Positions 30,259-33,803 of a stretch of 64,000 nt of DNA are shown here, in pieces. Source of the DNA: Escherichia coli (lineage in GTDB: Bacteria > Pseudomonadota > Gammaproteobacteria > Enterobacterales > Enterobacteriaceae); the NCBI RefSeq assembly GCF_003018255.1, contig NZ_CP027440.1; one strand, 5' to 3'. The position numbers were made by a program, and so were the translations under genes. Position 1 is the first letter of the stretch. Every line of letters starts with the position of its first letter. Under the pieces are notes generated by a model that saw only the letters and a list, made by a program, of their open reading frames with translations, ran no database searches and was not told the origin of the DNA.

Positions 30259-30277
30259 CTTCAGCCGCATGCAGAAA

Positions 30278-30306
30278 AGGGATAGCTCAGGCTGTCCCTT
30301 TTTTAA
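30278..30306 (+). terminator. Rho-independent terminator of yeiP
   Basis: 9-bp stem (AGGGAUAGC/GCUGUCCCU with one G-U pair) followed by UUUUUU. Confidence 0.65.
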
Positions 30307-30480
30307 TTTATTATACCAATCTTCTATTTTGCGCTTCCTGAACACCTTACACCCGCAATATTCACTCGTTGATTGATCGCCCTCACACTTCATCGCATTA
30401 ACAATCCAGACCAATTTCAATTGCTGTCATATAACTTTACACTGTCATTGTTAATTAATCGTTACTAAGACGTGACTCCT

Positions 30481-31947
30481 ATGAATACAATCGCCTCCGT
30501 TACGCTCCCGCATCATGTACACGCTCCACGCTACGATCGCCAGCAGTTGCAATCACGTATCGTTCATTTTGGCTTTGGAGCCTTTCACCGCGCTCATCAG
30601 GCGTTACTGACCGATCGTGTGCTGAATGCCCAGGGCGGCGACTGGGGGATCTGTGAAATCAGCTTGTTCAGCGGTGATCAACTGATGAGCCAGCTCCGCG
30701 CACAGAACCATTTATATACCGTGCTGGAGAAAGGGGCGGACGGCAATCAGGCGATAATTGTCGGTGCCGTTCACGAATGCCTTAATGCAAAACTGGATTC
30801 CTTAGCGGCAATTATTGAGAAATTTTGCGAGCCACAGGTGGCAATTGTTTCCCTGACGATTACCGAAAAAGGCTATTGTATTGACCCAGCCACCGGTGCA
30901 CTCGACACCAGCAATCCGCGGATTATTCACGATCTTCAAAATCCTGAAGAACCTCACTCCGCGCCGGGTATTCTCGTCGAAGCACTGAAACGACGCCGTG
31001 AACGCGGCCTTGCACCGTTTACCGTACTCTCCTGCGACAATATTCCCGACAATGGCCATGTGGTGAAAAACGCGGTGCTGGGGATGGCGGAAAAACGTTC
31101 ACCAGAACTCGCCGGGTGGATAAAAGAACACGTCAGTTTTCCGGGAACCATGGTCGACCGTATTGTTCCGGCAGCAACCGACGAATCACTGGCGGAAATC
31201 AGCCAGCATCTGGGGGTGAATGATCCCTGTGCGATTAGCTGCGAACCGTTTATCCAGTGGGTGGTGGAAGATAACTTCGTCGCTGGGCGTCCTGCCTGGG
31301 AAGTCGCAGGTGTACAAATGGTGAATGATGTCCTGCCATGGGAAGAGATGAAACTGCGTATGCTTAATGGCAGCCACTCTTTTCTCGCTTATCTGGGTTA
31401 CCTCTCAGGATTCGCGCACATCAGTGATTGCATGCAGGATCGCGCATTTCGCCATGCCGCCAGAACATTAATGCTGGATGAGCAAGCGCCAACACTGCGA
31501 ATTAAAGATGTCGATTTAACACAATATGCGGATAAGTTAATTGCACGTTTTGCTAACCCGGCGCTGAAACATAAGACCTGGCAAATCGCGATGGATGGCA
31601 GCCAGAAATTACCGCAACGTATGCTGGCAGGTATTCGCATACATCTGGCGCGCGAAACAGACTGGTCGTTGCTGGCATTAGGCGTTGCAGGCTGGATGCG
31701 TTACGTCAGCGGCGTTGATGATGCCGGAAATGCCATTGATGTTCGCGATCCGCTTAGCGATAAAATTTGCGAACTTGTTGCGGGCAGTAGCAGTGAACAA
31801 CGCGTCACCGCCCTGCTTTCCCTGCGTGAAGTTTTCGGTGATGATCTGCCAGATAACCCGCATTTTGTGCAGGCCATCGAACAAGCCTGGCAACAAATCG
31901 CACAATTCGGCGCGCATCAGGCGCTATTAAACACCCTCAAAATTTAA
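30481..31947 (+). CDS. yeiQ: Mannitol dehydrogenase-family oxidoreductase of unknown substrate
   Basis: Start at the ATG giving 488 aa. Long-chain mannitol/fructuronate dehydrogenase family. Confidence 0.88.
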   Translation: MNTIASVTLPHHVHAPRYDRQQLQSRIVHFGFGAFHRAHQALLTDRVLNAQGGDWGICEISLFSGDQLMSQLRAQNHLYTVLEKGADGNQAIIVGAVHECLNAKLDSLAAIIEKFCEPQVAIVSLTITEKGYCIDPATGALDTSNPRIIHDLQNPEEPHSAPGILVEALKRRRERGLAPFTVLSCDNIPDNGHVVKNAVLGMAEKRSPELAGWIKEHVSFPGTMVDRIVPAATDESLAEISQHLGVNDPCAISCEPFIQWVVEDNFVAGRPAWEVAGVQMVNDVLPWEEMKLRMLNGSHSFLAYLGYLSGFAHISDCMQDRAFRHAARTLMLDEQAPTLRIKDVDLTQYADKLIARFANPALKHKTWQIAMDGSQKLPQRMLAGIRIHLARETDWSLLALGVAGWMRYVSGVDDAGNAIDVRDPLSDKICELVAGSSSEQRVTALLSLREVFGDDLPDNPHFVQAIEQAWQQIAQFGAHQALLNTLKI

Positions 31948-31963
31948 CGATTTCTGCGGTTAA

Positions 31964-31990
31964 AGCGGATGAAGCTCGCCTTCGTCCGCT
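31964..31990 (+). terminator. Stem-loop (11-bp stem with one G-U pair) followed by a U-rich tract after yeiQ
   Basis: AGCGGATGAAG-ctcgc-CTTCGTCCGCT, then ctccccttctcttttctgccgttttt. Confidence 0.35.
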
Positions 31991-32064
31991 CTCCCCTTCT
32001 CTTTTCTGCCGTTTTTAGCCAGGATTAACGCTCAGTTAACTTTTAAGAGTATTGCGGAGCCGTT

Positions 32065-33051
32065 GTGACCAGGACCAACCTCATCACCGGTTTTCTCGGC
32101 AGCGGGAAAACTACGTCGATTCTTCATCTGTTAGCCCATAAAGATCCCAACGAAAAATGGGCGGTACTGGTTAATGAATTTGGGGAAGTCGGAATTGATG
32201 GTGCTTTGCTCGCCGATAGCGGCGCATTGCTGAAAGAGATCCCCGGCGGCTGCATGTGCTGCGTTAATGGTTTACCCATGCAGGTAGGATTGAATACCTT
32301 ACTGCGTCAGGGAAAACCAGACCGCTTGTTGATAGAGCCGACCGGACTGGGTCATCCGAAACAGATCCTCGATCTCTTAACCGCGCCCGTGTATGAACCG
32401 TGGATAGATCTGCGCGCCACGTTGTGCATTCTCGATCCACGCCTGCTGCTGGACGAAAAAAGCGCCAGCAATGAAAACTTCCGTGACCAGCTGGCTGCCG
32501 CAGACATTATTGTCGCCAATAAATCCGACCGTGCGACGCCCGAAAGTGAGCAAGCGCTACAGCGCTGGTGGCAGCAAAATGGTGGCGATCGGCAATTAAT
32601 TCACAGCGAGCATGGGAAAATTGACGGTCATCTTCTGGATTTGCCGCGTCGCAATTTAGCCGAGTTGCCCGCCAGCGCCGCGCATTCTCATCAGCATGGC
32701 GTGAAAAAAGGGTTAGCAGCGTTAAGCCTGCCAGAGCATCAACGCTGGCGTCGCAGTCTGAACAGCGGGCAAGGATATCAGGCCTGTGGCTGGATATTCG
32801 ACGCTGATACGGTATTCGACACCATTGGCATTCTGGAATGGGCGCGACTTGCACCGGTGGAACGCGTCAAAGGCGTGATGCGTATTCCCGAAGGGCTGGT
32901 GCGAATCAACCGTCAGGGCGATGACCTGCACATTGAAACGCAAAACGTTGCGCCACCGGACAGTCGTATTGAGCTGATTTCCAGCAGCGAAGCTGACTGG
33001 AATGCCTTGCAGAGCGCGCTGTTGAAGCTTCGTTTAGCGACCACCGCGTAA
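32065..33051 (+). CDS. yeiR: COG0523-family zinc-binding GTPase
   Basis: GTG start. P-loop GFLGSGKTT and CxCC motif (GGCMCCVNG). Confidence 0.9.
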   Translation: MTRTNLITGFLGSGKTTSILHLLAHKDPNEKWAVLVNEFGEVGIDGALLADSGALLKEIPGGCMCCVNGLPMQVGLNTLLRQGKPDRLLIEPTGLGHPKQILDLLTAPVYEPWIDLRATLCILDPRLLLDEKSASNENFRDQLAAADIIVANKSDRATPESEQALQRWWQQNGGDRQLIHSEHGKIDGHLLDLPRRNLAELPASAAHSHQHGVKKGLAALSLPEHQRWRRSLNSGQGYQACGWIFDADTVFDTIGILEWARLAPVERVKGVMRIPEGLVRINRQGDDLHIETQNVAPPDSRIELISSSEADWNALQSALLKLRLATTA

Positions 33052-33089
33052 GGTTGCCTGCGTTTTTCAGTAAGATAATTAGAGAAAAT

Positions 33090-33803
33090 ATGATTAAAAA
33101 TTTGCCGCAAATAGTGTTGTTGAATATTGTCGGCCTCGCGCTGTTTCTTTCCTGGTATATTCCCGTTAATCATGGATTCTGGTTGCCGATTGATGCGGAT
33201 ATTTTTTATTTTTTTAATCAGAAACTGGTCGAAAGTAAGGCCTTTTTGTGGCTGGTTGCATTGACCAACAATCGCGCTTTCGACGGTTGTTCACTGCTGG
33301 CGATGGGAATGTTGATGCTGAGTTTCTGGCTGAAAGAAAACGCCCCAGGCAGACGACGTATCGTGATTATTGGTCTGGTCATGCTATTAACTGCAGTGGT
33401 ATTAAACCAGCTGGGTCAGGCATTAATTCCTGTAAAACGGGCCAGCCCAACATTGACTTTTACCGATATTAACCGCGTCAGCGAACTGCTCTCTGTTCCC
33501 ACGAAAGATGCCTCACGAGATAGCTTTCCCGGCGATCACGGTATGATGCTGCTTATTTTTTCGGCATTCATGTGGCGTTATTTCGGCAAAGTTGCAGGCC
33601 TTATCGCCCTTATTATTTTTGTGGTTTTTGCGTTTCCCAGAGTAATGATTGGCGCACACTGGTTTACTGACATCATTGTCGGTTCGATGACCGTGATATT
33701 GATCGGTTTGCCCTGGGTGTTGCTGACGCCATTAAGTGATCGATTAATCACCTTTTTTGACAAATCACTACCGGGAAAAAACAAACATTTCCAAAACAAA
33801 TAA
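33090..33803 (+). CDS. lpxT: Lipid A 1-diphosphate synthase / undecaprenyl-pyrophosphate phosphotransferase (PAP2 family)
   Basis: Start trimmed to MIKNLPQ giving 237 aa. PAP2 membrane phosphatase. Confidence 0.87.
   Translation: MIKNLPQIVLLNIVGLALFLSWYIPVNHGFWLPIDADIFYFFNQKLVESKAFLWLVALTNNRAFDGCSLLAMGMLMLSFWLKENAPGRRRIVIIGLVMLLTAVVLNQLGQALIPVKRASPTLTFTDINRVSELLSVPTKDASRDSFPGDHGMMLLIFSAFMWRYFGKVAGLIALIIFVVFAFPRVMIGAHWFTDIIVGSMTVILIGLPWVLLTPLSDRLITFFDKSLPGKNKHFQNK

Follow-up and report, generated by a model that had tools for sequence, protein, structure and literature searches.

yeiQ and yeiR of Escherichia coli: neighbouring genes for a hexuronate reductase and a zinc GTPase that are very probably functionally unrelated

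The genes yeiQ and yeiR lie next to each other on the same strand of the Escherichia coli chromosome, in a region present in 5425 of 5426 complete genomes. The window analysed here is a stretch of 64,000 nucleotides of this chromosome. A preliminary description of the window had named both genes, and our ORF calls confirm their identities and positions, which coincide exactly with the RefSeq annotation of yeiQ and of yeiR. The spacer length of 117 bp given there is likewise exact. The features at the locus are as follows.

30273 to 30304, plus strand: intrinsic terminator of yeiP, a 14-pair stem followed by TTTTTT (terminator scan)
30305 to 30321, no strand assigned: UxuR/ExuR-operator-like box AATTTATTATACCAATC, 10/14 match to AATTGGTNNACCAATT
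30372 to 30387, no strand assigned: CRP binding site ATTGATCGCCCTCACA in the yeiQ promoter, identical to a published ChIP-seq site
30409 to 30444, plus strand: putative core-promoter block GACCAATTTCAATTGCTGTCATATAACTTTACACTG upstream of yeiQ, nearly invariant in a 75-locus alignment
30481 to 31947, plus strand: yeiQ, 488 aa
31948 to 32064: yeiQ-yeiR spacer, 117 bp
31964 to 31990, plus strand: stem-loop at the yeiQ 3' end, arms 31964 to 31974 and 31980 to 31990
31996 to 32025, plus strand: pyrimidine-rich block CTTCTCTTTTC-N11-GCCAGGAT, the yeiR promoter region, near-invariant in the spacer alignment
32025 to 32039, no strand assigned: short inverted repeat TTAACGCTCAGTTAA, at the position of a Zur box in relatives
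32056 to 32059, plus strand: yeiR Shine-Dalgarno sequence GGAG, invariant in 40/40 aligned species
32065 to 33051, plus strand: yeiR, GTG start, 328 aa
33090 to 33803, plus strand: lpxT (PAP2 family), 38 bp downstream of yeiR

The families to which both proteins had been assigned were correct. YeiQ carries Mannitol_dh (PF01232), the N-terminal Rossmann domain, and Mannitol_dh_C (PF08125), the C-terminal helical domain, with 232.1 and 248.8 bits against gathering cutoffs of 27 and 30.7. It also passes the NCBIfam model of fructuronate reductase, NF011611 (653.5 bits, cutoff 603), for which its orthologues reach 657-706 bits, and stays below the cutoff of the tagaturonate reductase model (189.5 bits, cutoff 359). 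YeiQ is 56.7% identical to E. coli UxuB and 79% identical to the syntenic gene product of Klebsiella. UxuB shares its Pfam architecture, but scores far higher with NF011611 (1130 versus 653 bits), and its gene belongs to the uxuAB operon, whereas E. coli yeiQ lies outside it, away from uxuA and uxuR. Full-length homology extends to YdfI (PDB 4IM7; 2e-179) and to the mannitol 2-dehydrogenase of Pseudomonas fluorescens (1LJ8/1M2W; 4e-111), which share the catalytic Lys, Asn, Asn, His and Asp of YeiQ; their substrates differ from those of YeiQ, and YdfI was deposited as a 'hypothetical oxidoreductase'. Residues N187, D226, K291, N296 and H299 of YeiQ align with N191, D230, K295, N300 and H303 of 1LJ8. 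In the latter, the lysine K295 acts in catalysis together with its Asn/His partners N191, N300 and H303. Members of the long-chain mannitol dehydrogenase family such as the P. fluorescens enzyme work without a metal cofactor. No conserved Cys/His cluster was found in YeiQ in the residue alignment including 1LJ8. What is known of the family, together with the conserved catalytic Lys/Asn/His, suggests that YeiQ would be metal-independent.

The preliminary description considered YeiQ an enzyme with no assigned substrate. This view is outdated in the light of both the fructuronate reductase score and published genetics: growth on glucuronate is abolished in a uxuB yeiQ double mutant, YeiQ being able to stand in for UxuB on this substrate, and it takes a uxaB uxuB yeiQ triple mutant to abolish growth on galacturonate (PMC4056367). 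On the basis of genetics, homology and gene context, YeiQ is an NAD(H)-dependent fructuronate/tagaturonate reductase isozyme. Its main reaction would be the reduction of D-fructuronate to D-mannonate, with tagaturonate reduced less efficiently to altronate, which would make YeiQ a back-up for UxuB and UxaB. A Dickeya gene, possibly an orthologue and called yeiQ by its authors, is required on glucuronate.

YeiR belongs to a different protein family. It matches PF02492 (cobW) with 149.7 bits and, marginally, PF07683 (CobW_C) with 23.8 bits against a cutoff of 22, and it aligns with the YjiA structure 1NIJ. Its motifs are a Walker A sequence GFLGSGKT (residues 9-16), the CxCC motif noticed previously and found here as CMCC (63-66), the switch II motif EPTG (91-94) and NKSD (152-155). 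The G3E domain with Walker A, CxCC, switch II and NKxD motifs is shared with the COG0523 metallochaperones ZigA, ZagA/YciC, ZNG1 and YjiA, as is a variable C-terminal domain; however, YeiR remains far below the equivalog cutoffs of ZigA, YjiA and CobW. Nor is yeiR any longer uncharacterised, as had been stated, since published work describes YeiR as a GTPase that binds Zn and is required when zinc is restricted (PMC10763504, PMC7895991), with a Zn KD of about 3e-12 M for the Salmonella protein. YeiR is a GTP-dependent zinc-binding COG0523 (G3E) protein helping cells through zinc restriction.

Concerning the regulation of yeiQ, the yeiP terminator directly abuts the yeiQ regulatory region. In the operator-like box AATTTATTATACCAATC Escherichia has its own form of a box that adjoins a divergent uxuA in other genera, where the aligned position holds an 11/14 box of the type AGTTGTTATACCAATA, the form found in Klebsiella; 11/14 is the best match in 67 of 75 upstream regions. 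The operator pattern comes from the uxu locus of E. coli, where 12/14 matches occur in the two regulatory spacers only. The sequence similarity makes the box at 30305-30321 a candidate UxuR/ExuR operator. The CRP site downstream of it is kept across genera in the 75-locus alignment and has the same sequence as the CRP ChIP-seq site of yeiQ in ETEC H10407 (PMC4287617). Reg-Seq assigned an FNR site to the yeiQ promoter, and ArcA is reported as a repressor of yeiQ. The block GACCAATTTCAATTGCTGTCATATAACTTTACACTG, judged by its conservation, is the putative core promoter.

As described previously, the spacer contains a hairpin; it occupies 31964-31990 and starts 16 nt past the yeiQ stop codon. Its stem has 11 bp, one of them a G.U pair, and its loop 5 nt. 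In the alignment of 40 species 85.8% of the cells are paired and nine of ten pairs have changed on both sides; none of 500 shuffles was as good, and slid controls reached 40-49%. Among 78 spacers, 76 fold better than their shuffled versions. In Salmonella, which lacks yeiQ, the hairpin is degenerate. The hairpin had been called weak and terminator-like. Only the second term holds, in the sense of a non-canonical terminator; the stem is strong and has been conserved in evolution. With intrinsic terminators the structure shares a G+C-rich stem with compensatory changes, but these need an adjacent U-tract, and no T-run directly follows the hairpin; CTCCCC comes next, in a C-rich, G-poor tract. 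The terminator consensus scan did not call the hairpin and detected no other terminator-like site before yeiR. A conserved T-rich run begins 5-9 nt past the stem and stays with yeiR where yeiQ is lost. We infer that the hairpin is a transcript-end or stabiliser element and at best a leaky terminator; the yeiQ transcript would be ended at, or stabilised by, this conserved stem-loop. Since the adjacent U-tract is missing, some read-through from yeiQ into yeiR is possible.

Other identities for the hairpin were considered. It is no REP element: its sequence is unlike the REP consensus in its familiar form, it occurs as a single copy and covaries in its structure. Searched against Rfam at gathering thresholds, the whole window yielded no family in or near the yeiQ-yeiR region. 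There is reason to doubt that the predicted sigma-28 promoter yeiRp3 is a conserved element: the hairpin arms have kept their pairing but not their sequence. An inverted repeat has been reported over the -10 of yeiRp3, which we take to be the yeiQ hairpin.

The pyrimidine-rich block downstream of the hairpin is retained upstream of Salmonella yeiR despite the loss of yeiQ, and it is overlapped by a validated TSS/promoter of yeiR, pTSS-2472 (PMC10763504). Promoter-up mutations in the spacer raise yeiR expression and confer EDTA resistance (PMC10763504). The promoter from which yeiR is transcribed lies within the final ~70 bp of the spacer and is its own; its GTG start is found in 39 of 40 aligned species. 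The boundary between the two genes is within the spacer: the upstream covarying stem-loop belongs to yeiQ and the downstream promoter block to yeiR.

Genes of the ZigA/ZagA type typically have a Zur box, whereas E. coli yeiR has none. Scored with consensus sequences of 23 bp and 20 bp (GAAATGTTATANTATAACATTTC or TGWNAYRWTATAWYRTNWCA), the best matches in the E. coli spacer were 11/22 and 11/18, which equals background. At the position of the inverted repeat TTAACGCTCAGTTAA, Klebsiella, Raoultella, Enterobacter and Leclercia show a Zur match of 15-17/22, and a match of at least 15/22 occurs in 21 of 78 related spacers versus 12 of 2000 random windows. The pattern RNNNYRNNRYNNYRNNNY of PMC7895991 proved too degenerate to inform. 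Genus-dependent Zur boxes may explain how E. coli becomes tolerant to EDTA by promoter-up mutations of yeiR.

The gene neighbourhood was compared by a genome search with YeiR, which covered Enterobacteriaceae at an identity of at least 81%; other families were reached via a 66%-identical representative and contig inspection. The backbone yeiP-yeiR-lpxT-mepS is conserved across Enterobacterales. Within it, 77 of 79 informative Enterobacteriaceae loci have yeiQ next to yeiR. In 69 other Enterobacteriaceae loci the mannonate dehydratase gene uxuA (TIGR00695, 685 bits) stands divergent from the yeiQ orthologue, and it is also present with this orthologue in Serratia and Yersinia. The E. coli window contains no uxuA; uxuA, uxuB and uxuR of this species are found at the distant gntP-uxuAB-uxuR locus. 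Four lineages have no uxuA/yeiQ cassette beside yeiR. Of yeiQ only scraps are left in Salmonella, where yeiR, lpxT and the promoter block persist, and in Pectobacterium, Dickeya and Pragia yeiP-yeiR occurs without yeiQ. In Serratia and Yersinia one or two opposite-strand genes separate yeiQ from yeiR. Co-conservation of the two genes is thus not borne out, with yeiR occurring without yeiQ in four lineages and the pair being interrupted in two genera. The comparative evidence identifies E. coli yeiQ as the syntenic uxuB-type reductase of Enterobacterales, orphaned by the loss of uxuA. Escherichia would have lost the divergent uxuA and kept yeiQ with a promoter controlled by CRP, ArcA and FNR. 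The published redundancy of YeiQ and UxuB is explained by this origin, as yeiQ is an orphaned uxuB-type gene of the uxu cassette. The stable adjacency in Enterobacteriaceae is accounted for by synteny, though a weak functional link would look alike.

Taken together, we consider it very probable that yeiQ and yeiR are functionally unrelated core genes, adjacent only via a hexuronate (uxu) cassette between yeiP and yeiR. The functional link proposed earlier is contradicted by separate promoters and by the failure of co-conservation, and shared transcription by the validated spacer promoter of yeiR and the CRP/ArcA/FNR promoter of yeiQ. Co-transcription free of internal promoter or terminator, as in an operon, is at odds with the conserved stem-loop and the published yeiR promoter in the spacer. 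The reading as an operon or functional couple, in which YeiR delivers zinc to YeiQ, could point to the common strand, the distance of only 117 bp with a hairpin lacking a U-tract, and the adjacency in nearly all informative Enterobacteriaceae loci. It is nevertheless largely refuted and we give it hardly any credence: yeiR has its own promoter, is kept where four lineages lost yeiQ and is set apart from it by opposite-strand genes in two genera, and CRP, ArcA and FNR act on yeiQ, which is listed without yeiR in the expression lists consulted. Moreover, YeiQ has the Lys/Asn/His set of a metal-free dehydrogenase family and no conserved Cys/His cluster. A link at the level of transcription only, with a CRP-driven yeiQ transcript reading past the hairpin and giving yeiR a carbon-source input, is unlikely but would agree with the missing T-run after the stem and the missing terminator-like site before yeiR. 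As E. coli is without the Zur box of its relatives, other inputs to yeiR may also matter. However, the strongly conserved, covarying stem-loop leads into a C-rich, G-poor tract, and one would expect such an arrangement to halt or process transcripts; published work treats yeiQ as a unit of its own that changes without mention of yeiR.

Two further readings place the client of YeiR in the neighbourhood. One assigns it to a metal-dependent part of the ancestral hexuronate cassette, the FCD zinc site of UxuR/ExuR or UxuA, instead of YeiQ. Just upstream of yeiR there are indeed uxuA and yeiQ, joined in Yersinia by a UxuR-like GntR/FCD regulator, and zinc-mediated effector binding has been reported for UxuR (PMC8092373, PMC11672702). 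The idea is extremely improbable all the same, with the cassette missing beside yeiR in four lineages that keep yeiR, with uxuA, uxuB and uxuR of E. coli at a distant locus and with no experimental hint found in the literature. Very improbable, too, is its extension, in which the adjacency would be the relic of a zinc-hexuronate link, YeiR loading the FCD zinc of UxuR/ExuR or the metal of UxuA in the cassette found beside it in Yersinia, Serratia and most Enterobacteriaceae, and read-through of the hairpin supplying YeiR upon induction of the cassette. The other reading sees the true partners of yeiR in the downstream envelope genes lpxT and mepS. The order yeiR-lpxT-mepS recurs in almost every one of the 80 Enterobacteriaceae loci as well as in Pectobacterium, Serratia, Yersinia and Pragia. 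Only some 33-53 bp lie between yeiR and lpxT, where E. coli shows no terminator-like site, and for another COG0523 protein, MigC of Acinetobacter baumannii, an action on the cell-wall enzyme MurD has been reported. Still, RT-PCR in E. coli W3110 found no joint yeiR-lpxT transcript (PMC2904496), neither LpxT (PAP2) nor MepS (NlpC/P60) is known as a zinc enzyme, and lpxT is absent in Dickeya and in one Pluralibacter locus, which leaves a partnership with the envelope genes improbable. Both yeiQ and yeiR are already annotated and have published functional data, and their adjacency is very probably without functional meaning. Outside the families described above, none of four distant YeiR homologues (45-48% identity) has a Mannitol_dh neighbour; one of the four follows a FUR-family gene, and a Vibrio fischeri gene called yeiR adjoins glmS.

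The window is chromosomal DNA of E. coli. Of 5426 complete E. coli genomes, 5425 carry the interval 30300-33300 (at least 95% identity), which is annotated as yeiQ, yeiR and lpxT. The open reading frames 30481-31947 and 32065-33051 match the RefSeq genes exactly; the gene positions and the 117-bp gap given in the preliminary description are thus confirmed by open reading frames, annotation and sequence. The adjacency of yeiQ and yeiR is ordinary and already known. The additions of this analysis are small: the history of the yeiQ cassette, the covariation of the hairpin 3' of yeiQ, the point in the spacer at which yeiQ elements give way to those of yeiR, and Zur boxes upstream of yeiR in some lineages.

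YeiQ carries both mannitol-dehydrogenase domains, as expected for the family proposed. It reaches 653.5 bits against the fructuronate reductase model of NCBIfam (NF011611, cutoff 603), falls below the NCBIfam cutoffs for tagaturonate reductase and D-arabinitol dehydrogenase, and shares 56.7% identity with E. coli UxuB. Growth on glucuronate is abolished in a uxuB yeiQ double mutant, and growth on galacturonate fails solely in a uxaB uxuB yeiQ triple mutant (Tervo and Reed, PMC4056367). By these growth defects the substrate of YeiQ, which had been described as lacking one, is assigned genetically. Among solved structures, E. coli YdfI (4IM7) and Pseudomonas fluorescens mannitol 2-dehydrogenase (1LJ8) come closest; K291, N187, N296 and H299 of YeiQ align with the four catalytic residues (Lys, Asn, Asn, His) of the latter, and D226 with its Asp. 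Dehydrogenases of this family are not known to require a metal for catalysis.

YeiR was correctly read as a CobW-like GTPase: a cobW domain and a marginal CobW_C domain were found, together with the motifs GFLGSGKT, CMCC (the CxCC motif), EPTG and NKSD. It is a zinc-binding COG0523 GTPase, as already published. For the Salmonella protein loaded with Mg-GTP, the KD for Zn(II) is ~3e-12 M, and its predicted in-cell metal is zinc (PMC7895991). Deletion of yeiR makes E. coli hypersensitive to EDTA, DTPA and TPEN; independent point mutations within the yeiQ-yeiR spacer, near the -10 of the RNA-seq-validated promoter pTSS-2472, give more yeiR mRNA and EDTA resistance, for which YeiR overproduction on its own suffices (PMC10763504).

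A functional link between YeiR and YeiQ, which the preliminary description had left uncertain, is highly improbable. Independent transcription and the lack of co-conservation speak against it directly, and metal-independent YeiQ activity is expected from its family. One metagenomic contig (L093 3931-6187) offers a more plausible type of zinc client than YeiQ: its YeiR homologue (46% identity) precedes, on the same strand, a gene for a zinc-type medium-chain alcohol dehydrogenase (ADH_N/ADH_zinc_N).

The proposed check of neighbourhood conservation showed that the pair is not co-conserved. Pectobacterium has yeiP-yeiR-lpxT-mepS with yeiQ absent, and Dickeya yeiP-yeiR-mepS. Pragia has yeiP, an opposite-strand YmdA-family gene and yeiR-lpxT; Serratia has yeiP-uxuA-yeiQ, the opposite-strand YmdA-family gene and yeiR; Yersinia adds to the Serratia arrangement an opposite-strand UxuR-like GntR/FCD regulator between yeiQ and yeiR. 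No Mannitol_dh gene adjoins any of four more distant YeiR homologues (45-48% identity); one of the four comes after a FUR-family gene, beside DUF3299 and an ABC transporter. The Vibrio fischeri gene called yeiR adjoins glmS. From these neighbourhoods the conserved backbone is yeiP ... yeiR-lpxT-mepS, into which the uxuA/yeiQ(/uxuR) module is set as a cassette between yeiP and yeiR in some lineages only. In Serratia, Yersinia and Pragia, the YmdA-family gene (PF27184, ~105 aa) sits directly upstream of yeiR; E. coli has no counterpart of it:

L089 5369-5680, opposite strand to yeiR, YmdA-family gene
L090 5361-5687, opposite strand to yeiR, YmdA-family gene
L091 5303-5626, opposite strand to yeiR, YmdA-family gene

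Gene order was compared at 80 loci anchored on YeiR, giving setB-yeiP-[uxuA, minus strand]-yeiQ-yeiR-lpxT-mepS. A divergent mannonate dehydratase gene (685 bits on TIGR00695) stands just upstream of the yeiQ orthologue in 69 loci (e.g. L080 5019-6413), in Citrobacter, Enterobacter, Klebsiella, Kosakonia, Raoultella, Kluyvera and others. The Escherichia loci of this set have no uxuA between yeiP and yeiQ; in the window this gap is 222 bp only (30259-30480), and E. coli uxuA-uxuB-uxuR sit elsewhere, beside gntP. Conservation among genera, E. coli included, is strong over the 230 nt upstream of yeiQ, which contain:

30372-30387, CRP site ATTGATCGCCCTCACA, identical to the ETEC CRP ChIP-seq site for yeiQ (PMC4287617)
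30305-30321, candidate UxuR/ExuR-operator-like box by sequence likeness, ATTTATTATACCAATC in E. coli and AGTTGTTATACCAATA in most genera

The box resembles palindromes that, within the E. coli uxu locus, are confined to its two regulatory spacers. Further, yeiQ is repressed by ArcA (PMC3798270), and its promoter has an FNR site according to Reg-Seq (PMC7567609). All this makes yeiQ a hexuronate gene under catabolite control, encoding the reductase of a uxu cassette that lost its dehydratase partner at this site in Escherichia. The yeiP terminator (30273-30304) directly abuts the operator-like box, a junction that looks like the deletion scar of the lost uxuA.

The spacer (31948-32064) holds two conserved elements:

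31964-31990, stem-loop with an 11-bp stem
31996-32025, near-invariant block CTTCTCTTTTC...TTTTTCGCCAGGAT, 3' of the hairpin

The stem-loop bears out the terminator-like hairpin described earlier. In an alignment of 40 species, 85.8% of cells are paired and both sides have changed in 9 of 10 pairs; none of 500 shuffles does as well, and pairing in slid controls is 40-49%. Most spacers (76/78) fold better than shuffles (p <= 0.05), with a median free energy of -16.5 kcal/mol for the hairpin segment. No T-run adjoins the stem-loop and the terminator scan made no call. As it has no U-tract, this hairpin may let some transcription read through from yeiQ; we consider this unlikely, and it would imply nothing at the protein level. 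Salmonella has lost yeiQ (S. enterica arizonae retains its last codons and a weak remnant only); its hairpin region folds no better than shuffles (p 0.07-0.41), and yeiR is still preceded by the CTTCTCTTTTT...CGCCAGGAT block. Therefore the stem-loop goes with yeiQ, as a putative 3'-end element or leaky terminator, and the pyrimidine-rich block with the yeiR promoter. In S. enterica diarizonae (L006 1976-7881), the uxuA/yeiQ position is occupied by tor-like genes and a regulator of the MocR type; the TMAO/DMSO-reductase-like products are of 832, 381 and 209 aa, and the regulator (MocR/PdxR-like, NF052282 at 376 bits) ends ~120 nt before yeiR. In Citrobacter sp. MGH106, a 145-bp insertion (L010 7750-7894) separates the hairpin from the stop codon of yeiQ. 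Bounded by perfect inverted repeats of 18 nt (GAGCCTATCCCATTAGGC / GCCTAATGGGATAGGCTC), it looks like a miniature transposable element. Intestinirhabdus (L025) carries a different insertion of ~150 bp, 3' of the CCAGGAT block.

The block, CTTCTCTTTTC-N11-GCCAGGAT, is conserved above the flanking coding ends in ~40 species. Good sigma-70 hexamers are missing from it, and the published account of this validated promoter gives its sigma factor as undefined (PMC10763504). Next come a variable segment, an invariant GGAG and the GTG start. We scored 78 spacers against 22 positions of the 23-bp Zur box of PMC4219657. The variable segment matches at 15-17 of 22 in 21 spacers, from Klebsiella, Raoultella, several Enterobacter, Leclercia, Silvania and Lelliottia; among 2000 random windows, 15 matches were reached only 12 times. 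The E. coli spacer scores 11/22, the background level. These scores suggest that Zur control of yeiR was gained or lost by lineage. The Zur-box-like palindromes, such as TAATTGTTATAGCATTACATTTA (17/22), precede the yeiR start by ~30-60 nt (e.g. L080 7945-7975) at loci L026, L031, L048, L075, L032, L058, L061, L064, L080, L081 and others, and are absent there in Escherichia and most Citrobacter.

The pair yeiR-lpxT is far more operon-like than yeiQ-yeiR. Its gap in the window is 38 bp (33052-33089) with no terminator-like site, and the adjacency (33-53 bp) is kept in Pectobacterium, Serratia, Yersinia and Pragia (L087-L091). RT-PCR found no joint yeiR-lpxT transcript (PMC2904496). Unrelated to either gene, the window also contains an L25 ribosomal-protein leader (Rfam, 46.9 bits) at 46708-46733 and a tRNA-Pro(GGG) gene (Rfam and ARAGORN) at 50449-50525.
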